A DNA stretch of 64,000 nucleotides from Candidatus Bathyarchaeia archaeon (GTDB lineage Archaea; Thermoproteota; Bathyarchaeia; Bathyarchaeales; Bathycorpusculaceae). The position numbers and the translations under genes were made by a program. Each line of letters starts with the position of its first letter. Positions within the stretch are counted from its first letter, which is position 1. Shown piece by piece: positions 31,814 to 55,387 of the stretch. The notes beneath the pieces were generated by a model. That model worked only from the letters and a program-made list of their open reading frames with translations, searched no databases and was not told where the DNA came from. The stretch is from positions 32,001-96,000 of the forward strand of contig JAVZLH010000003.1 of NCBI GenBank assembly GCA_038883855.1. The letters are read 5' to 3'.

Positions 31814-32902
31814 TTATTTTGTTGCCTTTGCCCATATTCTGCATGTGCCTTCTATGCTTACCATGCAGGCTCCTCTCGGCTTTTGCGGAGTACACGCCTT
31901 CATAAAAAGCGGACATTCTGTTGGCTTAATTTTGCCAATCATAACCAAGTGGCATTGGCACCCTGGCAACAAGTCCTTACCAAACTTGATTTTGACATCG
32001 AACTTTTCTCGTGCATCGTAGTAGGCAAATTCTTTTTTAAGTTTCAGCGCGGAGTTTGGCAATATGCCCAAACCCCGCCAGCCTCCCTCGACGGTTTCAA
32101 AAGCCTCCTTCATTAGTTGTTGCGCTTTCAGATTTCCTTCCGGGCTGACTGCACGTGTGTATTCGTTTTCTAGACGTGCTTTTCCTTCTCTGAACTGTTT
32201 AAGAATCATATATATAGCGAATAATACGTCTAGGGGTTCGAATCCAGCTACGACTGTTGGCATCCGATACGCTTTCGGAAAAATTTCGTAAGGTTTTAAG
32301 CCAATAATTGTGCTTACGTGACCAGGCGCAATAAAACCGTCAATGTGCAAGTCACCTATCCCTAAAAGAAGCTCCATGGCTGGTGGGATAAGCCTATGCG
32401 AAACCAGAAAACTGAGGTTTAAGGGCGGTTTGTGTAAGACTTCAGCTGCCGTGGATGGAGCAGTGGTTTCGAAACCTATGGCGAAAAACACGAATTCCTT
32501 GTTTGGTTCTTGCCTAGCCATTTTAACCGCGTCACCAACGCCGTAAACAACTCGAACATCAGCCCCGTCAGCTTTAACATCCAGCAAAGAGCCTTCAGAG
32601 CCTGGAACTCGCAGTGCATCACCAAAACATGTGACTGTAATGCCTTTTTTGGCTAGGCGGATCGCCTCGTCGATTTCAGAGGCGGGAGTCACACAGACTG
32701 GGCATCCTGGTCCAGCAATTACTTCAACCGTGTCGGGTAGGAGGTTTCGAATCCCAAAATGTGTTATGGTCCATTCATGTGTGCCGCAGACATGGCATAT
32801 TTTCACGGTTTCTTTTTTCGGAGCGATTTCCCGAATTTTTTCTGTTACACGTTTCGCTGTTTCTGGATCTCTAAATCTTAACTTTTCAGTCATTTTCGTC
32901 AA
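31814..32902 (-). CDS. hypD: Hydrogenase maturation protein HypD
   Basis: CGTHE, GPGCPVC, GFETT, PGHVS, GACMVSIEGTC. Confidence 0.97.
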   Translation of the reverse strand: MTKMTEKLRFRDPETAKRVTEKIREIAPKKETVKICHVCGTHEWTITHFGIRNLLPDTVEVIAGPGCPVCVTPASEIDEAIRLAKKGITVTCFGDALRVPGSEGSLLDVKADGADVRVVYGVGDAVKMARQEPNKEFVFFAIGFETTAPSTAAEVLHKPPLNLSFLVSHRLIPPAMELLLGIGDLHIDGFIAPGHVSTIIGLKPYEIFPKAYRMPTVVAGFEPLDVLFAIYMILKQFREGKARLENEYTRAVSPEGNLKAQQLMKEAFETVEGGWRGLGILPNSALKLKKEFAYYDAREKFDVKIKFGKDLLPGCQCHLVMIGKIKPTECPLFMKACTPQKPRGACMVSIEGTCRIWAKATK

Positions 32903-37733: not shown

Positions 37734-39978
<2,245 letters not shown>

Positions 39979-40102
39979 TCCAAGCCCCTCATAGGTGGCT
40001 CAAGGTTTTAAAGCGAATTTAAACGAAGTAATAACTGAGCAAAAATATTATATAAAAGAGTTATGCCTTTTTTCGCAATTTTTCCTTAAGAAAATTGCGA
40101 AA

Positions 40103-41038
40103 TTATTCTTTGCGGTAGTATGGACGCCTGATGTAACCGTAGGCTTCTAAGGCGGCGGTTATGCCTTGCCCCACGGCTGTTCCAACCTGCTTAACAGGAT
40201 GATTTGTAACGTCTCCAGCAGCATAAACCCCTAGAATGTTCGTTCGCTGAAAAATATCCACCTTAATGTAACCTTTTTCATCAACCTCAACTCCAGCATC
40301 CTTAGCAAACTGACTATTTGGAACCTCTCCAACTTGAACGAAAACACCATCCATATTTAACTCTGCGGTTTCTCCAGTTTTGTTGTTGAAAACCACCACT
40401 TTTTCAACAACTTTTTCGCCCAGTATCTCCTTCACTTCAGTGTTCCACAAAATTTCCACGTTCGCCTTTTTCCTCAAATCTTTCACTAACGCCTCTTCAG
40501 CGCGGAACACGTCTCGGCGATGAGCAATTTTTACTTCGGATACTATCCCAGCCAAGTATAGAGCGGTTATTACTGCCGAGTTCCCCCCACCAACAACGAG
40601 AACTCGTTTACCCTTAAAAAAGGGGCCATCGCAAATTCCGCAGTAGCTTACTCCTCTCCCGCGAAATTCCTTCTCGCCCGGCACTCCAATTTCGCGATAA
40701 TGGGAACCGGACGCGATTATAAGAGCTTTCGCTTCATAAACTCCACGGTTTGTTTTCACAATTTTTCTCTCGCCCTTCAAATCCAAACTTGCCACTGCTT
40801 CAAATTCGTGGATGGTTGCACCAGAGCTTCTGCATTGAGCCGCCATCTTCTGAGCCAGCTCCACCCCAGTTATGCTTTGAAAACCCGGGTAGTTTTCAAT
40901 TATTGGCGCGTCGGCAACAGTGCCTCCTGCCAGCTTTTCATCTAAAACTAAAGTTTTTAGTCCACTTCTTGCACCGTAAATTCCAGAGGTTAAACCGGCA
41001 GCACCCGCGCCAATAATTATCAGCTCCCAATTTTCCAT
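40103..41038 (-). CDS. trxB: Thioredoxin reductase
   Basis: GAGAAG, IENYPG, GVSYCGICDG, GGGNSA, HRRDVFRA, AAGDV. Confidence 0.93.
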   Translation of the reverse strand: MENWELIIIGAGAAGLTSGIYGARSGLKTLVLDEKLAGGTVADAPIIENYPGFQSITGVELAQKMAAQCRSSGATIHEFEAVASLDLKGERKIVKTNRGVYEAKALIIASGSHYREIGVPGEKEFRGRGVSYCGICDGPFFKGKRVLVVGGGNSAVITALYLAGIVSEVKIAHRRDVFRAEEALVKDLRKKANVEILWNTEVKEILGEKVVEKVVVFNNKTGETAELNMDGVFVQVGEVPNSQFAKDAGVEVDEKGYIKVDIFQRTNILGVYAAGDVTNHPVKQVGTAVGQGITAALEAYGYIRRPYYRKE

Positions 41039-41275: not shown

Positions 41276-42361
41276 ATGAGTTTGCCTCGAAAATTTACAT
41301 ATTCTCGTGCTGGCGTTGACAGAAAACTGAGGAGGGAGTCGAAGAGGGCGTTGACAGTTTTGGAGAAAACCTACGGGTTTAGCTGTTATGGTGATGTGGT
41401 TCGGCTTCCCTACGGGAACATTTTCCCTTTTAGAGAAAACTGTTACCTAGACCTTGTTATTGAGGGGGTTGGCACAAAGGTTCTTTTGGCACAGTTAGCG
41501 GACAAATATGACACCATCGGAATTGACGGGGTTGCTATGGCTGTTAATGATGTCATCCGTTCGGGCGCCCGACCATTAGCCGTTGCAGACAACATTCATG
41601 CCCAAGTTTCTGATCCCGTTTTGGTTCACGAGTGGATGAAGGGTATATTGAAAGGCGCTGAAGAAGCGAACTGTGTTGTGCCAAGCGGCGAAATAGGCGA
41701 CGTGGGAGATTTGATAAAAGGGTTGGCTGAGGGTAAGGGTTTTGACATGGTTTTTGCGGCGATAGGTGAAGTTGAAAGGGATAAGGTTATTTTTGGAAAG
41801 GATTTAAGGGCTGGCGATGTTGTTATAGGCTTGCGGAGTTCTGGAATCCACAGCAACGGGATTTCTCTTGCACGGAAAATTTTATTCAAGCATTGGGGTG
41901 GAAAATACGAGCCTTTCGACATTCCAGGAGGCTTTTACAGAGAGATAGTTTATGAGGTTTTGGAGCCAACTAGGATTTACGTTAAGCCGCTGTTAAAAGT
42001 AGCTGATGAGGTTAAGGTGAAAGCCGCAGTGCACATTACTGGCGATGCATACTTAAAGTTTGACCGTTTAATGGCGTTTTCGAAAGGTGTGGGTTTTGAG
42101 TTTGACAATTTTAAGCCTCAGCCAATCTTTGAGTTAATCCAGAAAACTGCCTCGGAGCTTGGCGGAGTTTTAACCGATGAGGAGATGTTTAAGACTTTTA
42201 ACATGGGTTGGGGTTTCGCAGTAGTTGTGGATAAAGAAAGCACGGATAGGGCTATGGATGTTTTGGATGGGGCTGGAGTGCACGCAGAGCAGATAGGGCT
42301 TGTGAATGATTCTGGGAAAATAACAATTCGTTATAAGGGCAGACGATTCATTTTGAGTTAG
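41276..42361 (+). CDS. purM: AIR synthetase (phosphoribosylformylglycinamidine cyclo-ligase)
   Basis: YSRAGVD, EGVGTK, AMAVND, SSGIHSNG, HITG, TFNMGWG. Confidence 0.93.
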   Translation: MSLPRKFTYSRAGVDRKLRRESKRALTVLEKTYGFSCYGDVVRLPYGNIFPFRENCYLDLVIEGVGTKVLLAQLADKYDTIGIDGVAMAVNDVIRSGARPLAVADNIHAQVSDPVLVHEWMKGILKGAEEANCVVPSGEIGDVGDLIKGLAEGKGFDMVFAAIGEVERDKVIFGKDLRAGDVVIGLRSSGIHSNGISLARKILFKHWGGKYEPFDIPGGFYREIVYEVLEPTRIYVKPLLKVADEVKVKAAVHITGDAYLKFDRLMAFSKGVGFEFDNFKPQPIFELIQKTASELGGVLTDEEMFKTFNMGWGFAVVVDKESTDRAMDVLDGAGVHAEQIGLVNDSGKITIRYKGRRFILS

Positions 42362-42421
42362 TGACTGTTTGCATCGTTAATGATGAAAGCGTTTAAATTT
42401 CCTAGAAATCAAACTTAGCCT

Positions 42422-42673
42422 ATGAAATACCGTTTAAGAATAGAAGTGAGTCTAAAATCTGGGCACATCGACCCAGAAGGCGAAACTACAGCGCGCTTGC
42501 TGAAAGAGCTTGGTTACCACGTTAACGGTGTTAATGTGGGTAAGGTTTACACTGTTGTTCTTGAAGCTGGTTCCCGTGAGGAGGCTGATGTTAAGGCTGA
42601 GGAGATGTGCAGGAGGCTTTTGGCGAATCCAACTAAGGATAATTACAGGTTTACGATTGAGGAAGTGAAATGA
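42422..42673 (+). CDS. purS: FGAM synthase subunit PurS
   Basis: DPEGET, VGKVY, LLANP. Confidence 0.93.
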   Translation: MKYRLRIEVSLKSGHIDPEGETTARLLKELGYHVNGVNVGKVYTVVLEAGSREEADVKAEEMCRRLLANPTKDNYRFTIEEVK

Positions 42674-45045
42674 GCCTCTACATTCGAAGGAAAACTCCTT
42701 TCCCACTCTTCGAAATAAATTTGGCTGACGCTTCTGACGAGCAACTGCTAGAGATAAGCAAGGAGTTGGGAATAGGCTTAAACTTGCATGAAATGAAAGC
42801 TGTCCAAGAATATTTCCGAAAGCAAGGGCGAAATCCGACGGATGTGGAGCTTCAAACCATTGGACAGACGTGGTCTGAGCATTGTTTTCACAAAACTTTT
42901 AAAGGCAAAATAATGATGGATGGTAAGGAAATTGACGGCCTCCTCAAAACCTACATTATGAAGGCGACAGAGAAAATTAAGCCAAAATGGTGTTTCTCTG
43001 TTTTCGAGGATAATGCGGGGATAATTCGTTTCGAAAGGGATTATGGAATAGCGGTTAAAGTTGAAACCCATAATCACCCATCTGCAATTGAACCGTTTGG
43101 AGGCGCTGCCACAGGCGTTGGCGGCGTTATACGCGACATCCTTGGGGTTTGGGCAGACCCCATCGCGTGCACTGACGTTTTGGGTTTCGGACCGTTGGAT
43201 TTTGATTATGAGAAACTGCCGTTTGGTGTTAAGCATCCGAAATATGTGTATATGGGTGTAGTGGCGGGTATAGGAAGTTATGGCAATAACATGGGAATCC
43301 CAACAGTGAACGGCGCCATATACTTTGACGAGAGCTACACGGGGAATGTTGTTGTCTACTGCGGGTGTATCGGCATATTGCCACTAAAAAAATTCAAGAA
43401 AAACGCCAAGCCAAACAACGTGATAGTTTTGGCTGGCGGAAAAACTGGGCGCGACGGCATTCACGGCGTGACCTTCGCTTCAGCGGAGCTAACTGAGAAA
43501 TCGGAGGAAGTTTCAAGACCAGCGGTTCAAATTGCGAACCCCATCGAAGAGGAGAAGCTGAAAAGGGCAATAATCAAAGTTCGAGACCTCGAACTTGCCT
43601 CTGCAATAACCGATTTGGGTGGAGGCGGACTTTCATCTGCTGTTGGCGAAACTGCTAAGAAGTTTGGCTGTGGAGCTGTTGTTTGGCTTGAAAAAGTTCC
43701 TTTAAAGTATGCTGGTTTGGCGCCTTGGGAAATTTACGTTTCCGAATCCCAAGAAAGAATGCTCCTTATAGTGCCCAGTGAAAATCTTGAAAAAGTTTTG
43801 GAAATCTTCAACGAAGAGGATGTGGAAGCCACAGCCATAGGAAAGTTCACCGCTGACAAGGTTTTGAGAATCTTTTACTGTGATGAAAAGGTTGCTGAGG
43901 TTGACATCCCATTCCTTTTTGAACCGCCAAAAGCCATTAGAAAAGCAGAGTATAAACCCTCAAGTTTCGAAGAGCCAAATTTCCCAATTCCAGAAAACCT
44001 AACTGAGACACTCATGCAGATTTTGGCTTCGCCGAACATTGCAAGCAAAGAAAGCGTGGTGCGCACCTACGACCATGAAGTGAAGGGAAACACCGTGCTT
44101 AAACCTCTACACGGAGAACATGGAGGTCCAAACGATGCAGCAATCATAAAACCGCTTAACGATTCTTGGAGGGGCTTGGTTATTTCATGTGGAATGAAAC
44201 CGCGTTACGGCAAAATTGACACTTATTGGATGGCGGCTTCCGCCCTAGACGAGGCGATAAGGAATAATGTTGCTGTCGGCGGAAGAAGAATAGCTTTACT
44301 GGACAACTTCACCTGGGGCAACCCTGAAAAGCCCGAAAGGCTTGGAAGCCTCGTTAGGGCTTGCGAAGCGTGTTATGATTTTGCAACAGCTTTTGGCACG
44401 CCGTTCATCTCGGGAAAGGACAGCCTATACAACGAGTCTCCGCTGGGTCCTGTGACGCCTACGCTTTTGATTACGGCTGTTGGGATAATTCCAGATGTTC
44501 GCTTGGCGGTTTCTGTTGATGTGAAAGAACCCAACGACTTAATATACGTTGTTGGCGAAACTTTCAAGGAGCTCGGCGGCTCTGAATATTATAGGCTGAA
44601 GGGTTTTATAGGAAAAAATGTGCCTAAAGTTCGCCCCAAAAAAGCGAAGAAAACCTTCAAGGCAATTACTAAAGCCATCGACTTGGGGCTTGTTAAGGCA
44701 TGTCACGACTTGTCTGAGGGGGGATTGGCGGTGGCTGCGGCGGAAATGGCTTGTGCTGGCGGCTACGGTTTAGAGCTGGATTTGCGAAAAGTGCCGGGTG
44801 AAGCCTTAAACCGTGATGATTTCATCTTGTTTTCTGAGTCGAACAGTCGTTTTCTTGTTGAAGTTTCACCTAAAGCCGAGAAGGAATTTGAGGCTTTGAT
44901 GAGGGGAAAAGCTTACGCTAACATAGGGAAAGTCACTGAGGAAACGCGGTTGCGGATTAAGGGTTTGAAAGGAAAAATTGTTGTTGACGCTTCAATTGAT
45001 GGTTTGCTGGCAAGTTGGAAAAGAACGTTAAGCGGCGGGGTTTAG
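42670..45045 (+). CDS. purL: FGAM synthase subunit PurL
   Basis: WSEHC, KVETHNHPSAIEPFGGAATG, DLGGGG, SESQERM, HDLSEGG. Confidence 0.97.
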   Translation: MSLYIRRKTPFPLFEINLADASDEQLLEISKELGIGLNLHEMKAVQEYFRKQGRNPTDVELQTIGQTWSEHCFHKTFKGKIMMDGKEIDGLLKTYIMKATEKIKPKWCFSVFEDNAGIIRFERDYGIAVKVETHNHPSAIEPFGGAATGVGGVIRDILGVWADPIACTDVLGFGPLDFDYEKLPFGVKHPKYVYMGVVAGIGSYGNNMGIPTVNGAIYFDESYTGNVVVYCGCIGILPLKKFKKNAKPNNVIVLAGGKTGRDGIHGVTFASAELTEKSEEVSRPAVQIANPIEEEKLKRAIIKVRDLELASAITDLGGGGLSSAVGETAKKFGCGAVVWLEKVPLKYAGLAPWEIYVSESQERMLLIVPSENLEKVLEIFNEEDVEATAIGKFTADKVLRIFYCDEKVAEVDIPFLFEPPKAIRKAEYKPSSFEEPNFPIPENLTETLMQILASPNIASKESVVRTYDHEVKGNTVLKPLHGEHGGPNDAAIIKPLNDSWRGLVISCGMKPRYGKIDTYWMAASALDEAIRNNVAVGGRRIALLDNFTWGNPEKPERLGSLVRACEACYDFATAFGTPFISGKDSLYNESPLGPVTPTLLITAVGIIPDVRLAVSVDVKEPNDLIYVVGETFKELGGSEYYRLKGFIGKNVPKVRPKKAKKTFKAITKAIDLGLVKACHDLSEGGLAVAAAEMACAGGYGLELDLRKVPGEALNRDDFILFSESNSRFLVEVSPKAEKEFEALMRGKAYANIGKVTEETRLRIKGLKGKIVVDASIDGLLASWKRTLSGGV

Positions 45046-45047
45046 CT

Positions 45048-45866
45048 TTGAAAACCGAAGACGTCAAAATCTGCATTTTACGCGTAGGCGGAACAAACTG
45101 CGATGCAGAAACCAAACGCGCATGTGAAGAACTCGGTGTTCAAGCCCGCATAGTGCATGTAAACGAACTGTTCAAGAAAAAGAACTTGCTGGAATACAAC
45201 GCCTTAATTTTTCCAGGCGGCTTTTCATATGGAGATTATGTGCGGGCTGGCGCCATATGGGCTAAGTGGATTATGGCAAAGTTGGAGAAGGAACTGAAAG
45301 CTTTTGTAGAAGAAAACCGCCCCATCCTCGGAATTTGCAACGGCTTTCAAGTTCTTGTCGAAGCTGGTTTGCTTCCAGGTTTTGAGGGAATAAGCCCCTA
45401 TCCAGAGGCTGCTTTAGCAACGAATGTTCCACCGGGCTACAATTGCCGCTGGATTTACCTCAAAAACGAAAACAATGGAAAGTGTATTTTTACACGAAAA
45501 ATTTCAGGTGGCAAGGTTCTTCGCATGGCAGTTGCCCATTCAGAGGGGCGTTTCATCTTCGCAAAGGAGAAGGAAAAACAGTTTTTGGAAAGGCTTTACG
45601 AGAACGACCAGCTTGTCTTCCGCTACTGCACGAAAAATGGCGAATATGCGGAAGGCAGTTACCCAGCAAACCCGAACGGTTCATTCCACGACATTGCTGG
45701 AATATGCAATCCAGAAGGAACAGTTTTTGGTTTGATGCCCCATCCAGAAAGAGCGTTTTACTGGTGGCAGCAGCCAGACTGGACTAGGTATAGGCAGTTG
45801 CCGCAGTATGGCGATGGAAAACTAATATTCGAAAGCTTAGTTGAACACTTAACCAAGAAATTTTAA
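45048..45866 (+). CDS. purQ: FGAM synthase glutaminase subunit PurQ
   Basis: GTNCD, PGGFSYGD, GICNGFQ, NPNGS, MPHPER. Start set at the TTG at 45048. Confidence 0.96.
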   Translation: MKTEDVKICILRVGGTNCDAETKRACEELGVQARIVHVNELFKKKNLLEYNALIFPGGFSYGDYVRAGAIWAKWIMAKLEKELKAFVEENRPILGICNGFQVLVEAGLLPGFEGISPYPEAALATNVPPGYNCRWIYLKNENNGKCIFTRKISGGKVLRMAVAHSEGRFIFAKEKEKQFLERLYENDQLVFRYCTKNGEYAEGSYPANPNGSFHDIAGICNPEGTVFGLMPHPERAFYWWQQPDWTRYRQLPQYGDGKLIFESLVEHLTKKF

Positions 45867-46763
45867 ATCCTTAAGCCGTGGAAGCCCAGGTCTAGCACCC
45901 ATCTTCATTATGCAACGGGAAGCCACAAAATTGCCCAACCGCCCACACTCGTAAAGGTTTTTGCCCTTAATCAAACCGTAAAGGAAACCAGCACAGAAGG
46001 CGTCCCCAGCACCAGTCGTGTCAACAACCTTAACCTTGAAGGCATCTATCAAATGATTTTCTCGCCCATCAGCCACATAGCAGCCTCTGCTTCCAAGTTT
46101 AACAGCAACTATCCCTATACCTTTCTCCAGTAGGATTTTTGCGCCTTCCCGATAATCGGAAACGCTAGTTAGCAATTTGAGCTCGTTCTGGTTTGGCATC
46201 AAAACAAAAGTGCGCCTCATTATGGATTCAAGTGCATCAAAACCTTTTCTCGCGTAAAGCTCACCCGGGTCTAAGCTGACTTTAACATTTTCTGGGAGTG
46301 TGTCAACAAGCTTTTTCTGGGTTTGGAAAGATTTTTCTCCAACAAAGGATGTTAGGTGCAAAAATTTTGTGTTAAAGGCGTATTCCTTGTTTATTTCTTC
46401 AAATTCTATTGTGTCATTCACGCCAGGGTCAACGTATAAGGCTCTTTCGCCCTTATCGTCCACGAAGCCCATGACTTTTCCGCTTCTGCCTCTTTTCGCG
46501 ATAATTATTCCATCCGTGTCGACGCCTTCTCGGCGAAAATCTTGGATCAACATTCTGCCTTCACTGTCTTTGGCAACCTTCCCCATGAAGCCAACTTTGC
46601 AGCCTAGCCTTGCTAAACCCACTATTGTGTTGGCTGCTGAGCCGCCGCATGCCTCTTTAAAATCTTTTATGAAGCCTTCTTCTTCGGCTCCAGCTATCTT
46701 ATTAACCCTAAAAAGTTTGTCAACGTTTAATGCTCCAAAACCAACAACATCAAAGCTTTTCAT
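45849..46763 (-). CDS. PfkB/ribokinase-family kinase (EhaT-like)
   Basis: [34 protein letters not shown]. Confidence 0.9.
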
Positions 46764-47671
46764 TTAAACAACTCACGCAAATAAATTTTGTATTCGCCGA
46801 GTTTTCCGCCGTAGTTTCCAGCTGAAATTTTAACCACACCTTCAACAGTTAACGCTGCTTCTATGCCAGCCCTCATAGCCTTTTTCACAGCATCCAACGA
46901 AACGCCGTTTATCACTATTTCGGGGATGAAGCCGACGCCTTCAGGAACCTTGGATTCTCTGCCAAGCTTCTTTTTCAGCGATGGGCAGTATGGGTGGTTT
47001 GTCGTCGGTCCTATCCACGGATAGCGTGTTTCAGGCTTGGAGCCAGCGGAGCAAATGTCGAAGGGTGTTGTAACGCCTTCAACTTCATGTATTGCTTTTA
47101 GAGCTTTTTCACCCGCCTCTCTTAGGGCTTCTTTATCTTTGCACATTATCCAGAAGTTTGCGCCCATGACACCGCGGGCATAGCCTAAATAGCGTTCAAT
47201 TATGAAGTCTGGAACCATTATGGGAACAACTATTACTTTGCGTCCATGCCGTTTTTCTGTCCATTCGTAGCCGTCTCCGCAATGCCCCACCCGTTCCATC
47301 ATGTCAATTTTTCCTTCAGCTTTCGGCAACGCGTCATAAACTGCGGTGAAGGGCTTTACTAAAATGTCTTGGCGTATTCTGTAGGAAAGCTCGATTTCAA
47401 ACTTTTTAAGAGAGTCAGAGAAGCCTTTCTTCTTGTCTATTCCGCCCCAGAACTGGATTAAGGCGCCTTTGCGCTTGTCAGGTGTTTCTCTTGCAGTTAG
47501 CCATTTTTCGATTCCGCCTTCCACTCTTCCAATAACTATGGAAGGGGTTGCTGTGGCGTCTTCAGCTGCTTTCCTCAAAGTTTCTTCGTCGTCTGCCGTT
47601 ATAATTACGTGGCAGTAGATTCCTTCAAAAGCTTCTGCATAAGTGTCCTCTATGAGGATTTCTTTAACCAT
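46760..47671 (-). CDS. Formylmethanofuran:H4MPT formyltransferase (Ftr) paralog (EhaS-like)
   Basis: [50 protein letters not shown]. Confidence 0.88.
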
Positions 47672-48753
47672 TACCCAAGTCTCCCAATGGCTTCTCCTCT
47701 CACTTTTTTCCTGAATTCCGTGCTTTCTTTCGCCAGAACATCCATATTTTCGCTGGTTACTATTTTAACTTTGGGCAGTTTTTGCGGGTATAACTGGAGC
47801 AGTTTCTCGCGCAAGTTCGGGTTTACTGGACTTTTAGCCAGTGTTTCGCGGCTCCAATTTTCAACCAGCTCGAAGACTTGGTTTTTTCCAAACTTGCAGA
47901 AGATGTCTGCAACTGCTGCTGTGGTTAGGCTGGTTTCTGATAGGATGGCAATGTCAGCGTTTTTTACGGCGTATTGGTTGCCGTTGAAGGAAACCGTTAA
48001 ACCGCCCCCGCCTTTAACAAGTTGGAAGGCTTCAACGTCTGTTATGCTGTCGCCTACATACATGACGTCGGAAAGCTCTATGTTGACTTTCTGCGCTGCA
48101 TCCTTTACCGCTTCAGCCTTTTCAAAACCGCCTATAGGGTTAACTTCCTCTAAAATTTTCCTTGAAGCCATCACCGCCATTTCTTTCCAGAAAATCTCAT
48201 CTAAACGCCTAATTGTTTCGCGGTCTCTTTTCGCAAAGTCTTCTATGGACTTTGCTCCATTTGGGATTTCAATGACGGGCATTTGCGCAATTTCCAGCGC
48301 CATCTTTCTGAGTTCAATTATTTCTTTTTCTGGCAGCACATACTTGTCGATGTTGACTTTTGTGCAGTAAGTGTTTTCGTATGGGAAGCCTATGGTTTGG
48401 CAAAGCGCCCTAATATAATGCTCGTAACTTGTGCTCACAATAAAGGCGTGGGCTACGCCCCGCAAATAATCTAGCGTTTCCTTAGTGTTTGCTATTAGAA
48501 CTAGGCTTTTTGCAGAAAACTCCCGCATTTTCTCGTTTGAAACATCATAAGCCTTGAGAAAGGGAAGGATAAGCCTTAAAGTGTCTCCAGCCTTGTAACG
48601 CGATCTCTTAAAGACGTCTGCAAGAACATCATCGTATTTGCTGATTACCGTAAAGAGTTTGTCGCCGTTTGGAACAAAGTGGGCTGTCAGCTCGAAAGCA
48701 TTATCGTTTTTGGATATTGGACCTTCACAGTCTGATATGAAGGCTTTCTTCAC
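47671..48753 (-). CDS. HAD-superfamily phosphatase (EhaR-like)
   Basis: Motif [14 protein letters not shown], motif II IVSTSY, motif III K (GGFEKAEAV), motif [10 protein letters not shown], then SFNGN. Confidence 0.82.
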
Positions 48754-50165
48754 TTTTTGCGCCTCAAACTTTCCATGTGCCCCATGCTTTTCGCTATGTG
48801 CTGTTTAGAGGCAATATCCGTCCGGTGCCAAAGAGCCCCGCCCTCTATGGCTTTTACTCCCTCCAACGATATTTGCCTAGCCTCTTCAATGCTGCTGCCA
48901 ACTCCTAAAACGCCGACAGCCCTGGATTTTAGGGCGTAGACTTTGCCATCGCGCAATTCCATGGAAGCAGGGTAGACGCGGATTTTATCACCATACTTTT
49001 TGGTTAAAGCATATGCTTTTGTTAGGTTGACTGGTGTTCCTATTTCGCTTTTATTCACAAGGTTTGGGAAAGCTTCGGCGTATCCGCCATAGTTTGGAGG
49101 AACTTTATAGGTTAAGACCGTTGCCGCCTTCTCTAGTTCAATGCGCGTTAGGTTTCCTTCCAAGATTTTGTAGCAAATATCAACGAAATCGTCTTTCAAA
49201 ATTGGCAGAATATTTATTATTTCAGGGTCTCCAGGACGGCTGTTATTTTCTAAGATTTTTGGCTCTTTGCCCGTATGCATAAAAGCCACGTAGAAGGGGA
49301 CACCCCTAAAGCCAGAGGGATCGTTTGCTTTTTCTTTCCATTTTTCAAAAAGCGTATTTACTATTTGCAGTTCCTTTTCCCTATCTGCTTTCGTCATGAA
49401 AGGCAAAAATTCGTCAACATCTTTGTAGGAGCCCATTCCACCAGTATTCGGTCCTTTGTCATCGTCAAAAGCACGTTTGTAATCCCTAGTTTCCGGTAGT
49501 GGAATTAGGTGTTTGCCGTCGCAGAAGGCTTGGAAACTAGACTCTTCCCCATCTATTTTTTCTTCAATTATAACTGCGCCATATTGGAAGTTTGACAAGA
49601 AATGTTCTAGGAGTTGTTCGCGGCTTGTGAAGTGGTCTCCCCAGACGCCCACACCTTTTCCAGCAGCGGGCTTGTCTGGTTTAACGACTGCCTCGTTTCG
49701 AAGTTCATCAAGCCAACTATAAACAGCTTTTTTCACAGCATCTTCTGTTTTGTAGTCTTTTGGGTCAAATATTTTGAAACGCGGATTAACTTCTGGAATG
49801 ATTTCTTGAAAGAGCATTCGCTGCTGAACTTTGCTTGCTTCTATGGCATATTCCTTCTTTGGACAAATCATCGGTATACCAGTTCGCTCTTCCACAAGGT
49901 CGCGGACGCCGTCTATTATTGGCTTTTCCGAACCAACTATGCCGAAGTCCATTTTGTCTTTGTTTGCTTCTGCAAATTTGCAGATTTCTTCAACATTTAA
50001 ATCTGGTATGACAACATGTTTGGCGGCTTTTTCAACGTTGAATGGGTTGCGTTGTTTGTCTGCGATATACAATTCAACCTTGTATTTTTGACTTCTTGCA
50101 AACGCGTCTACCATGGCGGCTTCTCTCGCCCCATAAGAAACTACGAGTATGCCAACCTTCTCCAT
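48750..50165 (-). CDS. purD: Phosphoribosylamine--glycine ligase (GAR synthetase)
   Basis: GAREAA, IEASK, AAGKGV, EEKIDGEESS, DYKRAFDDDKGPNTGGMGS, NSRPGDPE, RTDIA. Confidence 0.93.
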   Translation of the reverse strand: MEKVGILVVSYGAREAAMVDAFARSQKYKVELYIADKQRNPFNVEKAAKHVVIPDLNVEEICKFAEANKDKMDFGIVGSEKPIIDGVRDLVEERTGIPMICPKKEYAIEASKVQQRMLFQEIIPEVNPRFKIFDPKDYKTEDAVKKAVYSWLDELRNEAVVKPDKPAAGKGVGVWGDHFTSREQLLEHFLSNFQYGAVIIEEKIDGEESSFQAFCDGKHLIPLPETRDYKRAFDDDKGPNTGGMGSYKDVDEFLPFMTKADREKELQIVNTLFEKWKEKANDPSGFRGVPFYVAFMHTGKEPKILENNSRPGDPEIINILPILKDDFVDICYKILEGNLTRIELEKAATVLTYKVPPNYGGYAEAFPNLVNKSEIGTPVNLTKAYALTKKYGDKIRVYPASMELRDGKVYALKSRAVGVLGVGSSIEEARQISLEGVKAIEGGALWHRTDIASKQHIAKSMGHMESLRRKK

Positions 50166-50181
50166 TTAAAGCACCCCTTAG

Positions 50182-51702
50182 TTAGGGAGTTAGGTTTTCG
50201 GCAAGCTCCGCCATCTCGTAAAGCCTCTCAGTTTCTTTGTATCCTGCAAGGAAGCGTTTCTTCATTTCATCCGCTATTTTCTGAGCGAAAGGCGTCGGAT
50301 ACTTGCCAGTAACGCATCCGAGGCATAATTGGTCTTGTGAAAAGCCCGTTGCCCTAACAAAGCTTTCTATGGACTGGTAACACACCGCATCCGCGCCTAT
50401 TATTCTCGCTATTTCCTCAGCATTGTGTTTTGCACCTATTAATTGGCTGTAGGTTGACATATCAATGCCATAGAAGCAGGGACCAATGATCCTTGGGAAA
50501 GTGACGAAAACATAAACTTTTTTGGCACCCATCCTTCGCAGCTTCTCAACCACAACTTTTGTTGTGTCGCCGCGAACTATACTATCGTCGGTTATTATGA
50601 CACGTTTTCCCCTAACTTTTGGCGCTAGAATGTTAACCTTCTTATCTATTGTCGCGTACCGTTCCTTATTGAGGAGGATGAAGGCTCGTTCAGTGACGTA
50701 ACGGTGTCTGCGGGAAGCCCTCTCCCACTTTAACCCAGACTCTTCATGAACACCAAAGGCGGAATCATCACCAGTTTCAGGCATAGAAAGTATCATGTCA
50801 GCGTCCTTAACTATGTCGGGGTTTTCTCTAGCAAGATTCCTTCCAAACCCCTCACGTATTTCATAAACATATCTATCGTCAAATCTTGAGTCTGGCCTGG
50901 CGAAATACGCAAATTCAAAGGCGCAAAAAGCTTTTTGCGCTCCTTTTACAAGCTGTTCCCTTTCAAATCCTTCTTTGGAAACTTTCACAAGCTCGCCCGG
51001 TTCAAGTTCAAAATCCCTTTCTAAACTGTTTATGTCCAGACCCGCGGTTTCTGAAGAAAAGGCGTACGTGGTTCCGTCGGTGCTGTGTCCAGCGCATAAG
51101 GGTCTTATTCCATGCGGGTCTTTGAAGGCGAAGAGTTCTCCTTTATTCGTTATGCCGGCCACAGAGAAGGCTCCATCCATTTCTTGCATACAGTTTTTTA
51201 CAGCTTTTGCAATATCTTTGTTTTTTGCCAGTTCGATTAGGAGTTTGCGGCATATTAATTCTGCATCCGATTGGCATGAGTAATCTCTGAAATGCTTGCT
51301 TATTTTCTTTTTCAGTTGAAAGACGTTTACGATGTTGCCGTTGAAGGAGATGGCGAGTTTTAAACCGTTTTTTGAAGCGGTAATGGGCTGTGTGCCTTTT
51401 ATTAACGATTTCTCATCCGACTTTCCAGATGTTGTGTATCTTACGTTTCCCATACCTATAGATCCTGGCAAACGTCCAAACCATTCCTGGATAGAGCTTG
51501 TTTTTATTTTTGGGACGAGGTCCAATCCCTTGTAAACGAAAAATTTTCCCCATTCATATGTGAGGAAACCGTGGGATTGATGTCCCCTGTGATTTTGCGC
51601 TCTTAAACCCCAGTATATATAAGGGAATACGGGCTGATTAGAGAAGTTTATTGCAGCAAATACTCCGCATGCTATTTTTAATTCCTCACCCATACTCGAC
51701 AA
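50182..51702 (-). CDS. purF: Amidophosphoribosyltransferase
   Basis: Propeptide then CGVF, HRG, NVRYTT, NGNI, CAFEFAYFARPDS, DDSIVRGDT, CFYGID, CLGC. Confidence 0.96.
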   Translation of the reverse strand: MSSMGEELKIACGVFAAINFSNQPVFPYIYWGLRAQNHRGHQSHGFLTYEWGKFFVYKGLDLVPKIKTSSIQEWFGRLPGSIGMGNVRYTTSGKSDEKSLIKGTQPITASKNGLKLAISFNGNIVNVFQLKKKISKHFRDYSCQSDAELICRKLLIELAKNKDIAKAVKNCMQEMDGAFSVAGITNKGELFAFKDPHGIRPLCAGHSTDGTTYAFSSETAGLDINSLERDFELEPGELVKVSKEGFEREQLVKGAQKAFCAFEFAYFARPDSRFDDRYVYEIREGFGRNLARENPDIVKDADMILSMPETGDDSAFGVHEESGLKWERASRRHRYVTERAFILLNKERYATIDKKVNILAPKVRGKRVIITDDSIVRGDTTKVVVEKLRRMGAKKVYVFVTFPRIIGPCFYGIDMSTYSQLIGAKHNAEEIARIIGADAVCYQSIESFVRATGFSQDQLCLGCVTGKYPTPFAQKIADEMKKRFLAGYKETERLYEMAELAENLTP

Positions 51703-51805: not shown

Positions 51806-52240
51806 CTATTCCACCGCGCTTGAAGTTATAGTTAACTCCGCGTTTGGAACCACGTGAATCCACCAGTCTAATGCTGTGAAGGAATCGTTGTAGTAGACTA
51901 TGAGCCTTGCAACTGAGCCTATAGGCGCGTCACATGGAACCGTGCCATTCCACGTTAAAGTTTTACGCTGATTTGATTCAAGAGTCAAGATTTGAGGTAT
52001 CCCACTCCAAGTCCACAATTCGCCTTCAAAAGCTATGTTAACATACCATGTGCCAACACTTTGTCCAGTGTTTTTAAAGTAAATCTTGACAATAAAAGTC
52101 TCACAAGGAGTTTTGTCGACAACACCTTTGCTGCAGCAGGCTAAACAAACCAGCTGCTGACCATTAGAACCCGAAGCTGCGAAAAATGCCATAATTATTA
52201 ACGTAGCTACTGCAAGAGTGAACAGAATAATCTTTTTCAT
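51806..52240 (-). CDS. Secreted or membrane-anchored protein with a probable Ig-like beta-sandwich
   Basis: Signal peptide MKKIILFTLAVATLII; FKNTG...W...LTWNGTVP beta pattern. Confidence 0.6.
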   Translation of the reverse strand: MKKIILFTLAVATLIIMAFFAASGSNGQQLVCLACCSKGVVDKTPCETFIVKIYFKNTGQSVGTWYVNIAFEGELWTWSGIPQILTLESNQRKTLTWNGTVPCDAPIGSVARLIVYYNDSFTALDWWIHVVPNAELTITSSAVE

Positions 52241-52773
52241 TTTTGATTACCTTCTTCTATAGAATATACTTAGAAAGTCTGTTTTATCCGTTCTGCAAAA
52301 TACTTCTATAACAAAAAAATAGAAGTTTCGAGAGCATTCCAGATAACAGGTCATAAATCGTATCGTAGAATAGGATGGAAATATTTTCACCTGCAAACTC
52401 TTTCTTTTTCTATTTCTTGGAAATAAAACAATTTATTCTATTCTAATCTCTAAATGTCAGCAAACTAAAAGAACGTCTTAAACCTATGCTGATGTGCCAT
52501 TTATTTGTCCAACCATTTGATGGTTTCAATTCTTTCTTCTCTTTCTTGATTTTGATTTTTGGACGGTTTTCTAGTCTAAACACGTCCAGAGTCAATTTAT
52601 TGATTTCTCTTTAAACCGAATCATGTTCTTTGATATGCCTAAACAGGTCTTAACATCAACCGTACCGATCTTATTGAATACCGTCAATGCTGCACGCAAA
52701 GTATCGACGAATGGAAAATTTTATAAATGATAATGGGTATAATATTTGGCAATCGAAAAGGGGAGGAAGAATA

Positions 52774-53964
52774 ATGGCGAAAATGAAGTATTTGGCAGCA
52801 TGGCCGGGTAGACTTGAGGTTCGAGAATGCGATATTCCAGAGCCAAAAGAAGGTCAAATACGTGTAAAAATAGAGTACGGTGGAATTTGCGGCACAGACA
52901 TACACGTCCTCGAGGAAGGGTTCGGTCCCCATAGAATTAGTGGAGCAGCAACTTACCCGCTAGTGTTAGGGCATGAGTACTCTGCTGTTATAGACAAGAA
53001 AGGGCCAAAAGCAGATGAAAAGATGTTCTACCATACAGAAAAAATTCCAGAGGTAGGGGACCGGGTTTATTACGGCGTAGACTACTACAACTACATGAGT
53101 CCTTTCACAATACGTGGCGCTGGTCAATGGGGAGGCCAATGGTTTTACGGTTTCTGTCCAATTGAAATGGGAGTGCGTGGTGCATGGGGTCAATATGTTA
53201 TCCTTGAACCTTACACCCATATCTGGAATATGAGCGAAGTTTCAGCCGAAGCCACAACGTTTGCCGAAATAAACACCGTTGGGCTTAGACAAGTCAACAG
53301 AGCTCTGACGATGGCATCGGTATCCAGTTTTGATAGAGAGTTTGAGCTAGGAAATGCTTTGGTTTTGATATACGGTGCTGGACCAATAGGCAATGCCGTC
53401 CTTCTCAACGTAAAACGCCACATGCCACTATCAGAAGTGATTCAAGTGGACCTGAATGACCATAGATTGGAAGTTGCAAAGAAAAATGGTGCGGACTATA
53501 CAATTAATGCTAAAAAAACTACGCCCGCTGAAAGAGAAGAAATAATAAAGGACATAGCCACAAGGAAACCGAGACCAGACCTGGGAAGCGCGTGGGGAGT
53601 GGACATAGTATTTGATTGTACAGGAAGGAACGCAAATGACGTGATTCCAGAAGGCATAAAAATGTGCAGACCTGGAGCAATTTTCATCGAAACTGGAGCA
53701 TACGTCTTTAAGACAACCGGAACATTCACTTTGGATCCTCATGAATTCTGCACCAGAGAAATCATCATTACCTCCGGCTGGGCATACCCATTCTCCACAA
53801 TAGACGAATCCCTGAGGATGTTGCTGAAGGACAAAGATCTGCAAAGAAAATATGCTGCAATGATAACCCACAAACACGCTCTTGACGAGGGAATGGAAGC
53901 AATAAAATCAGCCATGCCACCGAGGTATGAGGGAGTAAAACACGTTTTTGACCCGTGGAAGTAA
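52774..53964 (+). CDS. Zn-dependent medium-chain alcohol/polyol dehydrogenase
   Basis: GICGTD, LGHE, GDRV, GAGPIG, DIVFDCTG; GGAGG RBS before the ATG at 52774. Confidence 0.88.
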   Translation: MAKMKYLAAWPGRLEVRECDIPEPKEGQIRVKIEYGGICGTDIHVLEEGFGPHRISGAATYPLVLGHEYSAVIDKKGPKADEKMFYHTEKIPEVGDRVYYGVDYYNYMSPFTIRGAGQWGGQWFYGFCPIEMGVRGAWGQYVILEPYTHIWNMSEVSAEATTFAEINTVGLRQVNRALTMASVSSFDREFELGNALVLIYGAGPIGNAVLLNVKRHMPLSEVIQVDLNDHRLEVAKKNGADYTINAKKTTPAEREEIIKDIATRKPRPDLGSAWGVDIVFDCTGRNANDVIPEGIKMCRPGAIFIETGAYVFKTTGTFTLDPHEFCTREIIITSGWAYPFSTIDESLRMLLKDKDLQRKYAAMITHKHALDEGMEAIKSAMPPRYEGVKHVFDPWK

Positions 53965-54226: not shown

Positions 54227-55387
54227 ATGGACTTAATTGGATACGAAAGAGATGACGGATCTGTAGGTGTACGCAACCATGTGCTAGTGCTTCCTTCTGT
54301 GGCATGCGCGATGGAAGTTGCAATGCGTGTTGCCAACCAAGTGGAAGGGGCGAAGGCTCTCATTCACCATCAAGGGTGTACTCAAATGGGATTAGATCTT
54401 GAGATTACGCAACGTACACTGGCTGCTTTGGGTAGAAACCCAAATGTGGGAGCTGTCCTAATAGTTAGCCAAGGTTGCGAAAGTGTATCCGTAGAACGAT
54501 TAGCTGACGACATCGCCAAAGTTGGAAAGCCCGTTGAAATAGTAACAATTCAAGAGTTAGGAGGAGTTGTTAAAACAGTAGCGCGCGGCGTTAGCATCGC
54601 AAGAAAGATGGTGCAAGAAGTCTCTCAAATCAGGAGGAAAACTTTCGATGTGAGTGACTTAACTATAGGTATTAAGTGCGGTGCGTCTGATGCAACATCT
54701 GGTATAGCTTCAAATCCAGCGGTTGGGGTAGCGTCGGACAAAATCCTGAATAATGGAGGAACTGTGATTTTCGGTGAAACTACTGAATTAATAGGAGCTG
54801 AGCATATAATAGCTAAGAGAACTGTTAGTGATGTGGTAAGTAAAAAAATCTATGAAATTGTTGAAAGGATGGAGAACAGGGCAAAGGAGGTTGGAGTAGA
54901 CATGAGAGGTACACAACCAACCCCAGGAAACATAAAGGGAGGGTTGACAACAATCGAAGAAAAGTCTCTAGGAACTATACGCAAAGCTGGGACATCCTTA
55001 ATACAAGGAGTACTTGAATACGCTGAAAGCCCAAAGGGAAAAGGACTATATGTAATGGATACTCCTGGAAGAGAACCTGAGGCATTGACGGGATTTGTTG
55101 CAGGAGGAGCGCAAATATTATTATTTACAACTGGAAGAGGTGCAACACAAGGATATCCTATTGTACCTGTTATCAAGATAACCGGAAACTCAGAGACTTA
55201 TAAAAAAATGATCGATGACATTGATATAGACGTAAGCTCTATTATTGAAGGAAAAGAAACAATTGAGGAGGCGGGTAACCGAATATACCTCGAAATTCTA
55301 AAGGTAGCTTCAGGCAAAAAAACTAAAGCTGAATCTTTTGGGTGCGCAGAACCCGCGGATATTTACAGAATTGGACACACTTTTTAA
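54227..55387 (+). CDS. UxaA/GarD/SuyB-family dehydratase or lyase, large subunit
   Basis: GYERDDGSVGVRNHV, NPNVGAV, KCGASD, GETTELIGAE, PGNIKGGLTTIEEKSLG, FTTGRG. Confidence 0.9.
   Translation: MDLIGYERDDGSVGVRNHVLVLPSVACAMEVAMRVANQVEGAKALIHHQGCTQMGLDLEITQRTLAALGRNPNVGAVLIVSQGCESVSVERLADDIAKVGKPVEIVTIQELGGVVKTVARGVSIARKMVQEVSQIRRKTFDVSDLTIGIKCGASDATSGIASNPAVGVASDKILNNGGTVIFGETTELIGAEHIIAKRTVSDVVSKKIYEIVERMENRAKEVGVDMRGTQPTPGNIKGGLTTIEEKSLGTIRKAGTSLIQGVLEYAESPKGKGLYVMDTPGREPEALTGFVAGGAQILLFTTGRGATQGYPIVPVIKITGNSETYKKMIDDIDIDVSSIIEGKETIEEAGNRIYLEILKVASGKKTKAESFGCAEPADIYRIGHTF

Follow-up and report, generated by a model that had tools for sequence, protein, structure and literature searches.

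A candidate three-gene route for glycinamide ribonucleotide formylation in a purine gene cluster of Bathyarchaeia

The purine gene cluster and its additional genes

The stretch of DNA analyzed here, 64,000 nucleotides (nt) long and called the window below, covers positions 32,001 to 96,000 of the forward strand of contig JAVZLH010000003.1 and belongs to Candidatus Bathyarchaeia archaeon (assembly GCA_038883855.1). It holds a cluster of purine biosynthesis genes joined by three others: ehaR, encoding a HAD-type protein, ftr2, encoding a paralog of formylmethanofuran:tetrahydromethanopterin (H4MPT) formyltransferase (Ftr), and pfkB, encoding a PfkB-family kinase (Table 1). Our results suggest, with a probability that we put at roughly 70%, that this ehaR-ftr2-pfkB module supplies the formylation of glycinamide ribonucleotide (GAR), which brings in carbon 8 of the purine ring, in place of PurN or PurT.

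The genes for steps 4 and 5 of the pathway, purM-purS-purL-purQ, are convergent with purF-purD-ehaR-ftr2-pfkB. Read on the coding (minus) strand, the purD stop overlaps the GTG start of ehaR in GTGA, ehaR and ftr2 meet in TAATG, and ftr2 and pfkB meet in ATGA; through these overlaps the last four genes of the minus strand are chained in translation. An earlier note on this stretch, made from the sequence alone, had described these overlaps and the open reading frames (ORFs) involved, and we reproduced all nine coordinates and read the same overlaps. It had also listed purF, purD, purSLQ and purM as present in the cluster and PurN and PurT as lacking, and domain and hidden Markov model (HMM) searches confirmed these families. 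PurL, PurM, PurQ and PurS are all canonical. The Pfam domains of PurF and PurD fit as well, at scores below the model cut-offs (TIGR01134 on PurF, 314 bits, cut-off 350; TIGR00877 on PurD, 268 bits, cut-off 288). No eha hydrogenase subunit was seen among the genes annotated between 37.7 and 57.1 kb of the window; the note had said this of the window as a whole.

Table 1. Genes of the purine cluster, with positions in the window
Gene	Position (nt)	Strand	Remarks
purF (amidophosphoribosyltransferase)	50182-51702	-	first in minus-strand operon; GATase_6/7 domains
purD (GAR synthetase, divergent subtype)	48750-50165	-	GARS_N/A/C domains
ehaR-family HAD-IB protein, 360 amino acids (aa)	47671-48753	-	HAD motifs; predicted to be an Mg-dependent phosphatase or phosphotransferase with the formyl acceptor as substrate
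ftr2 (paralog of formylmethanofuran:H4MPT formyltransferase), 303 aa	46760-47671	-	FTR + FTR_C domains; proposed donor-side enzyme that formylates the glycinamide amine
PfkB-family kinase (ribokinase-like), 304 aa	45849-46763	-	PF00294; proposed 5'-kinase restoring the phosphate
purM	41276-42361	+	above NCBIfam cut-off; purM-purS-purL-purQ block spans 41276-45866
purS	42422-42673	+	above NCBIfam cut-off
purL	42670-45045	+	above NCBIfam cut-off
purQ	45015-45866	+	above NCBIfam cut-off

The missing step in the source genome

The search for purN and purT was extended from the cluster to the whole source assembly (1.11 Mb, 24 contigs, 85% complete), and neither was found: the PurN profile gave no match, and the best PurT match reached 55.9 bits against a cut-off of 502, within an open frame of 1102 aa. 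The same genome encodes purF, D, S, L, Q and M as well as FwdA and Mch. It also carries two adjacent PurP paralogs outside the window (G000:C4:36415-37880; loci L010 and L011). Comparing PurP copies in five genomes and the source genome, we found the same adjacent pair in two PurT-positive relatives (G007, G237) and in an EhaR-positive one (G159), so the second PurP is not a stand-in for PurT. A PurP paralog was consequently rejected as the favoured candidate for the missing enzyme, two copies being present in EhaR-positive and PurT-positive genomes alike.

That some archaea lack a recognisable GAR formyltransferase, a point made in the earlier note, is borne out by published work. Brown et al. 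2011 report none in seven Euryarchaeota, namely two Archaeoglobi, four Methanobacteriales (for which the paper writes 'Methanomicrobiales') and Methanopyrus kandleri, and leave the function of the second PurP copy open (PMC3261824). In E. coli, a mutant lacking both purN and purT is unable to form formylglycinamide ribonucleotide (PMC3261824). Chadwick et al. 2022 report the enzyme as missing in ANME-1 (anaerobic methanotrophic archaea) too (PMC9012536).

Linkage across related genomes

The close homologues of the window proteins come from metagenome-assembled genomes of Bathyarchaeia. A scan with one genome per species yielded 474 EhaR relatives, and loci were analyzed for the best 80 of these (EhaR identity 54-73%), of which 79 are labelled Bathyarchaeia and one (L037) Thorarchaeota; the fractions below count only those loci among the best 80 with enough flanking sequence. 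The linkage to pur genes is by no means unique to this contig: the end of purD lies at the start of ehaR in 69/69 loci, and purF stands upstream of the purD-ehaR pair in 62 of 64. The start of ftr2 is at most 200 nt from ehaR in 55/71 loci and at most 10 kb away in 64/71, and pfkB directly follows ftr2 in 64 of 65. Most of the best 80 loci repeat the convergent pur arrangement. EhaR is the member of the module most tightly bound to purD; where further genes separate ehaR from ftr2, as in some loci, they are unrelated (an integrase-like gene, for instance).

Phyletic complementarity

We determined the distribution of the proposed alternatives in 301 Thermoproteota genomes of at least 85% completeness, a sample kept identical for every query (cut-offs: EhaR profile, E <= 1e-10; PurN, E <= 1e-8; PurT model, E <= 1e-40; PurD, E <= 1e-30). 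EhaR was found in 42 genomes, comprising 41 of the 46 Bathyarchaeia (own genome included) and a weak match in G295. PurN matches occur in 96 genomes (76 above the model cut-off), PurT-model matches in 106 and PurD in 211. Among the PurD-positive genomes 61 have PurN only, 75 PurT-like only, 39 EhaR only, 31 both PurN and a PurT-model match, two EhaR together with a weak PurN-like match, and three none of these; 208 of the 211 thus carry PurN, PurT-like or EhaR. Thirty of the 31 genomes with both belong to one family (f13), in which the PurT-model match stays at only about 140-160 bits, comparable to the confirmed PurK of G306.

Not a single one of the 301 genomes combines EhaR with PurT-like, and PurT-like or PurN above cut-off is seen in 0/42 EhaR-positive genomes. 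Two of the three genomes with none have only partial PurD matches. The third, G271, a non-Bathyarchaeal member of the Thermoproteota without PurN or PurT, encodes a very divergent EhaR of 361 aa (hhalign 97.1%, E 6.5e-11) that overlaps the start of an Ftr2-type gene. In G295, which belongs to the same family outside the Bathyarchaeia, a PfkB-like gene adjoins an EhaR-like one, and there is a second Ftr. The pair of G271 (L144:7980-10984) lies back to back with Ftr1 and adjoins CdhC, an acetyl-CoA synthase subunit.

A second sample of 151 Bathyarchaeia shows a similar picture. Here 65 genomes have EhaR, 22 PurN above cut-off, 38 a weak PurN-like match and 20 none; of 11 PurT-model matches one (G306) is PurK according to NCBIfam (466 bits), leaving 10 PurT-like. 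With the PurK of G306 set aside, PurT-like or PurN above cut-off is present in 0/65 EhaR-positive genomes. The expected anticorrelation of EhaR with PurN and PurT is accordingly seen, in one phylum (Thermoproteota).

The EhaR-negative Bathyarchaeia make for the most stringent comparison. Four of the five in the phylum sample carry PurT or PurT-like. In G237 the order is purF-purF'-purD-PurT, and the gene that immediately follows purD encodes a true PurT (472 bits against a cut-off of 339). The order in G297 is purF-purF'-purD-PurT-like (454 aa, 246 bits), convergent with purS-L-Q, which is the layout of the window with the trio exchanged. In the fifth, G025 (98% complete), no PurD was found, and the same holds for five tested genomes of the wider sample that have none of EhaR, PurT and PurN; neither EhaR nor Ftr2 was found in these six without purD. 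The five EhaR-negative genomes of the phylum sample have no close PfkB ortholog (best identity 36%, against 62-82% for orthologs). All five tested genomes with only a weak PurN-like match do have PurD.

The PurT-like proteins form a subfamily of 454-470 aa that is widespread in Thermoproteota and scores about 225-265 bits, below both PurT cut-offs. Besides the copy in the purD slot of G297 (L105:4451-5815) there is one beside hypD and hypE in G007 (L102:8814-10196). Judged by sequence, these proteins are probably a divergent PurT missed by the curated models.

For methanogens, Archaeoglobi and ANME the match between absent PurN/PurT and the presence of Ftr2 and EhaR is drawn from papers and one solved structure. 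Methanococcales have PurT as well as eha. The groups reported to lack PurN and PurT (Archaeoglobi, Methanobacteriales, M. kandleri, ANME-1) are largely those reported to have Ftr2 (PMC3261824; PMC9012536).

An exchanged formyltransferase

Ftr2 was not found in one Bathyarchaeal family (G041, G073, G322). Its place is taken in G322, where a single minus-strand operon reads purF-purD-PurN-like-ehaR-pfkB-folD and the PurN-like stop overlaps the ehaR start. Among the best 150 of 654 EhaR representatives is P0178 (599 aa, metagenomic), in which the same PurN-like subfamily as in G322 is fused to EhaR. The two share insertions, and the catalytic motifs N-x-H-P and D-E-G-P are kept. Because the module retains EhaR and a ribokinase-like kinase when its donor-side enzyme switches from the methanofuran/H4MPT type to the folate type, we place EhaR and PfkB on the side of the acceptor.

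Many Bathyarchaeia (families f56, f54, f61) have no formyltransferase candidate other than a PurN-like protein of 270-300 aa (83-106 bits, cut-off 150); in G325 such a gene (L155:2766-3605) overlaps the purD stop. These proteins are, as far as can be read from their sequence, a putative further PurN variant that escapes the equivalog model.

Two long proteins (P0201, P0208) join EhaR to an ATP-grasp domain. We did not retain them as PurT fusions, the ATP-grasp part resembling PurT over a 36-residue motif only (hhalign 62.6%). The locus of one ATP-grasp-EhaR fusion (L143, a metagenome contig) is uninformative, its neighbours being a restriction-modification methylase, a helicase, a SIR2-like protein and AcnX. 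Two further candidates were set aside: P0309, a 682-aa 'long EhaR', is extended past the native ...ARLG in what looks like missed-stop read-through, and P0241 (486 aa) has a low-complexity tail and no family match.

Named divergent EhaR representatives come from Bathyarchaeota and Methanomassiliicoccales. EhaR-like clusters of a protein atlas, which serve as leads only, point to Methanobacteriota, Thermoplasmatota and bacteria (Thermodesulfobacteriota, Spirochaetota). Thermodesulfobacteriota, Spirochaetota and Thermoplasmatota are not known for methanofuran; should their clusters prove genuine, EhaR would there probably pair with a PurN-like protein or some other formyltransferase.

Properties of the encoded proteins

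The HAD protein of the window has generic HAD matches only in the Pfam and NCBIfam search. Proteins 93-94% identical to it carry the Joint Genome Institute (JGI) label 'energy-converting hydrogenase A subunit R' (EhaR; KEGG K14109). Its motifs are D8-x-E10, S107-T-S, K212 and G234-D-S-I-T-D239, in which D8-x-E10, S107-T108, K212, D235 and D239 are invariant or nearly so (25-60 sequences), and a C-terminal tail, RK.VRG...G.LG, is conserved. In motif I the usual second Asp is replaced by Glu (D-x-E). Enolase-phosphatase E1 has the same D-x-E, so the variant is compatible with phosphatase activity. The nearest solved relative is AF1437 (PDB 1Y8A; E 1.8e-36 for the sequence alone and 1.5e-70 for the profile), and the profile next matches phosphoserine phosphatases, at about 1e-7.

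Both lobes of Ftr are recognised in the Ftr-like protein (PF01913, 155-157 bits; PF02741, 198 bits). It scores above the cut-off of NF002554 (356 bits, cut-off 297) and below that of the fhcD equivalog TIGR03119 (245 bits, cut-off 292.6), and matches the solved Ftr structures 1M5S, 1M5H and 1FTR at E about 1e-55. In a quick maximum-likelihood tree (73 rows) the window protein is one of 36 Ftr2 rows, which split from the 37 Ftr1 rows at 100% SH-aLRT for either clade; this quick tree puts two long-branch rows, from G295 and G271, at the base of Ftr2. Identity is 57-86% within the Ftr2 clade against 37-44% to Ftr1, and Ftr2 is further set apart by a 9-residue insertion and 26 positions fixed differently. 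The EIVING motif keeps its Glu, reported as catalytic in the structure papers on M. kandleri, without variation in Ftr1 and Ftr2. Five large Bathyarchaeal genomes each have one Ftr of about 186 bits and one pur-linked Ftr of about 148 bits (PF01913), to be compared with 157 for that of the window. At least two Ftr matches are present in 36 of the 41 EhaR-positive Bathyarchaeia, with canonical Ftr1 usually kept beside Ftr2, and the five EhaR-negative Bathyarchaeia have one Ftr1-type match or none. A divergent 'Ftr2' has been described in ANME-1, ANME-2a/2b, Archaeoglobales, M. kandleri and M. marburgensis by Chadwick et al. 2022, whose sections on this protein and on the absent GAR formyltransferase treat the two separately and do not connect them (PMC9012536). 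In the relevant parts of two transcriptome papers on Archaeoglobus fulgidus both Ftr copies are listed simply as enzymes of the acetyl-CoA pathway.

For the kinase the family assignment is clear (PF00294, 189 bits), and the ribokinase equivalog is not reached (TIGR02152, 175.5 bits, cut-off 299.65). Its di-Gly, NxxE and GAGD motifs are intact (GGSAAN at 40, NQNE at 191, DTTGAGD at 248-254). The nearest solved relatives are sugar, ribo- and adenosine kinases, at E about 1e-27.

PurD itself is of a divergent subtype, which retains the SRPGDPE motif but differs from the other PurD type in its indels and in the missing C-terminal tail. Among the EhaR-positive Bathyarchaeia 40 have a PurD match, with E-values of 1e-61 to 1e-81, compared with 1e-99 to 1e-113 in the four EhaR-negative ones. 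Between G297 and the window PurL is 66% and PurF 55% identical, against only 31% for PurD; in G297 purD was exchanged along with the trio. A strict coupling of the divergent PurD to EhaR is ruled out by two genomes: G310 has the subtype without EhaR, which also speaks against the function proposed here, and G271 has a canonical PurD (385 bits) alongside its EhaR-like/Ftr2 pair. The subtype may be no more than a trace of the lineage from which a block of genes was transferred.

Interpretation and alternatives

That the trio forms a purine module, as the earlier note had proposed, finds support in its linkage, in the complementarity with PurN and PurT, in the PurT or PurT-like gene occupying the same slot, in the joint loss, in the swap of the formyltransferase and in the fusion. 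The note had named two computational outcomes that would speak against it, purN or purT in most genomes with the trio and a pur linkage peculiar to this contig, and neither was borne out. From these observations, together with the gene content and the catalytic motifs, we infer substrates, donor and order of steps. As PurL, PurM, PurQ and PurS are canonical, the module must deliver phosphorylated formylglycinamide ribonucleotide (FGAR). The mechanism that we favour, to which we nevertheless give less than even odds, runs through a dephosphorylated intermediate; it is the second option of the note and the simplest one to employ all three intact enzymes. EhaR would dephosphorylate GAR to glycinamide riboside, Ftr2 would formylate this riboside with a formyl group taken from formyl-methanofuran or N5-formyl-H4MPT, and PfkB would re-phosphorylate the product to FGAR for the canonical PurL. 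Both donors are made by the cell (FwdA and Mch are present), and the shunt would cost one ATP, the same as PurT. We prefer it to direct formylation of GAR because EhaR is the member closest to purD, survives the swap of the formyltransferase and is fused to one, and is not found where PurT is present. A phosphotransfer variant, or a helper role for EhaR and PfkB, is not favoured. More tentative still is a general three-enzyme bypass, in which carbon 8 would be installed at the nucleoside level by way of an exchangeable formyltransferase (Ftr2, PurN-like or possibly ATP-grasp).

A number of points weigh against this interpretation. The source genome is only 85% complete, and the activities of EhaR, Ftr2 and PfkB are predicted. 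A cycle that removes and restores a phosphate looks wasteful, and nothing here requires one. Three genomes (own genome, G267 and G291) show the Ftr2 type only, and the source genome has FwdA and Mch; Ftr2 might thus still act as an ordinary Ftr there, or Ftr1 may lie in the missing 15% of the assembly. Ftr2 is absent within 10 kb of ehaR in 7/71 loci; in the two of these seven genomes that were examined the Ftr2-PfkB pair sits elsewhere, once beside purQ. In the PurN-like operon the kinase beside EhaR shares only 35-37% identity with that of the window, so that the two are no more than putative orthologs. Divergent PurN-like genes adjoin purD without EhaR (G325; families f56 and f54), so EhaR is not required by every unusual formyltransferase. 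Apart from G295 and the divergent G271 the EhaR-positive genomes belong to one class, and the counts may come down to some four to six independent events of gain, loss or exchange. Ftr2 and PurN are reported to occur together in ANME-2a/2b (PMC9012536), and complementarity is therefore not strict outside Thermoproteota. Labelling data for Methanobacteriales are reported to be inconsistent (PMC3261824). Finally, EhaS and EhaT of Methanothermobacter were, according to Kaster et al. 2011, first annotated as formyltransferase and ribokinase; the Thauer group read them as parts of the Eha complex, since they are co-transcribed with eha, and judged the formyltransferase and ribokinase functions unlikely (PMC3087415).

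The closest alternative shares the claim of GAR formylation and differs in mechanism: Ftr2 alone would formylate GAR, and EhaR and PfkB would be helpers, either a salvage or repair pair or a control point. Formyl-methanofuran is itself a primary-amine formamide, and its formyl exchange with GAR is expected to be nearly isoenergetic, with PurL pulling the reaction; the Glu taken to be catalytic is invariant in Ftr1 and Ftr2 alike. The PurN-like genes that adjoin purD in other Bathyarchaeia do without EhaR, and the aminoimidazole riboside kinase of Salmonella offers a precedent for a PfkB protein salvaging a riboside of the purine pathway. A helper would be unlikely, however, to track the formyltransferase so closely as EhaR does, which abuts purD in all 69 loci, is kept when Ftr2 gives way to PurN-like, is fused to PurN-like in P0178 and is not found where PurT is present. 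We therefore consider direct formylation doubtful. Less probable again is a role outside GAR formylation, with Ftr2 as a one-carbon (C1) Ftr isoenzyme or Eha accessory, EhaR and PfkB acting on a sugar phosphate, and GAR formylation left to some other protein, for instance a PurP paralog or an ATP-grasp enzyme that escaped recognition. It would suit the genomes with the Ftr2 type only, the Fwd and Mch of the source genome and its two adjacent PurP paralogs, the co-transcription with eha in Methanothermobacter, and the report on ANME-2a/2b. Yet pur genes stand where eha would be expected, with purD at ehaR in every one of the 69 loci; EhaR and Ftr2 are not found with PurT-like or without purD in the genomes sampled; PurP is duplicated in PurT-positive relatives too; Ftr1 is widespread without EhaR; and the version of the module with PurN-like and FolD is unrelated to methanofuran.

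Very improbable, in our view, is a formylglycine route, with free glycine as the substrate of Ftr2 and direct, single-step production of FGAR by the divergent PurD, which would join N-formylglycine to phosphoribosylamine. In its favour, EhaR-positive genomes do have a distinct PurD subtype under the equivalog cut-off, and the low PurD identity in G297, where purD was swapped with the trio, would fit. Such a route leaves EhaR and PfkB without a role, while G310, G271 and the possible origin of the subtype as a mere marker of the donor lineage all argue against it. A role of the module in cofactor biosynthesis (methanofuran, H4MPT) was rejected, as Ftr1-bearing genomes without EhaR are common.

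Metabolic models of methanogens fill GAR formylation without a gene. Purine-prototrophic archaea that lack a GAR formyltransferase have been on record since 2011 (PMC3261824), with ANME-1 added in 2022 (PMC9012536), and the locus described here provides a concrete three-gene candidate. If the module does formylate GAR, a function would follow for a widespread Ftr paralog now counted as a C1-pathway enzyme and for the solved AF1437 family. Three 'hydrogenase subunits' (EhaR/S/T) would be re-read as biosynthetic enzymes, and purine synthesis would draw directly on formyl groups bound to methanofuran or H4MPT, donors that the literature treats as unlikely. Should the bypass hold as well, it would represent a third, modular class of GAR formylation that fills the gap in Methanobacteriales, Archaeoglobi, Methanopyrus, ANME-1 and Bathyarchaeia, and would tie the anabolic formyl-methanofuran supply of Eha directly to purine synthesis.

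Neighbouring genes in the window

Upstream of purM, three redox genes occupy positions 37734-41038 on the minus strand. They encode a 469-aa protein with Fer4_20 and pyridine-nucleotide-disulphide oxidoreductase domains, a 280-aa protein with a dihydroorotate dehydrogenase B Fe-S domain and a 311-aa thioredoxin-reductase-like flavoprotein. The 469-aa and 280-aa proteins look like an NfnAB or sulfide-dehydrogenase-type pair. Just upstream of purF, an ORF of 144 aa (51806-52240, minus) has no Pfam or NCBIfam match. Further along, a zinc alcohol-dehydrogenase-like gene (52687-53964) adjoins a plus-strand gene (54227-55387) for an altronate/galactarate-dehydratase-like protein that has the second and C-terminal domains only.

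Comparison with known systems

The trio has family-level counterparts in EhaR, EhaS and EhaT at the end of the Methanothermobacter eha operon. The earlier note had given this naming, and it agrees with the EhaS and EhaT annotations in PMC3087415 and with the EhaR of the JGI naming. Full-text searches of the literature library used here returned no paper linking EhaR/S/T or Ftr2 to GAR formylation. Unlike that of Methanothermobacter, the trio of the window stands in a purine operon, as it does in the related loci.

The only solved member of the EhaR family is AF1437 of A. fulgidus, a structural-genomics 'hypothetical protein'. Its motif I reads D-W-E-G-P, against D-C-E-G-P in the window protein. 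The match stops at EhaR residue 298, so that the C-terminal 60 residues of the window protein, including the conserved tail, are not covered. Canonical Ftr (1FTR, 1M5S, 1M5H) has the same two-domain fold family as Ftr2 and moves a formyl group between a primary amine and a pterin; Ftr2 of the window differs from it in forming a separate clade and in being linked to pur genes rather than to C1 genes. As to the kinase, the aminoimidazole riboside kinase of Salmonella, a PfkB-family member, phosphorylates the riboside of a purine-pathway intermediate and so offers a precedent for the proposed step, although it is a salvage enzyme and not a step of the main pathway. PurN and PurT share with the trio the proposed step and the slot after purD, and exclude it mutually in the sampled genomes. 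Each of the two, using N10-formyl-tetrahydrofolate (PurN) or formate and ATP (PurT), is nonetheless one protein that is not homologous to Ftr2 and needs no phosphatase or kinase.

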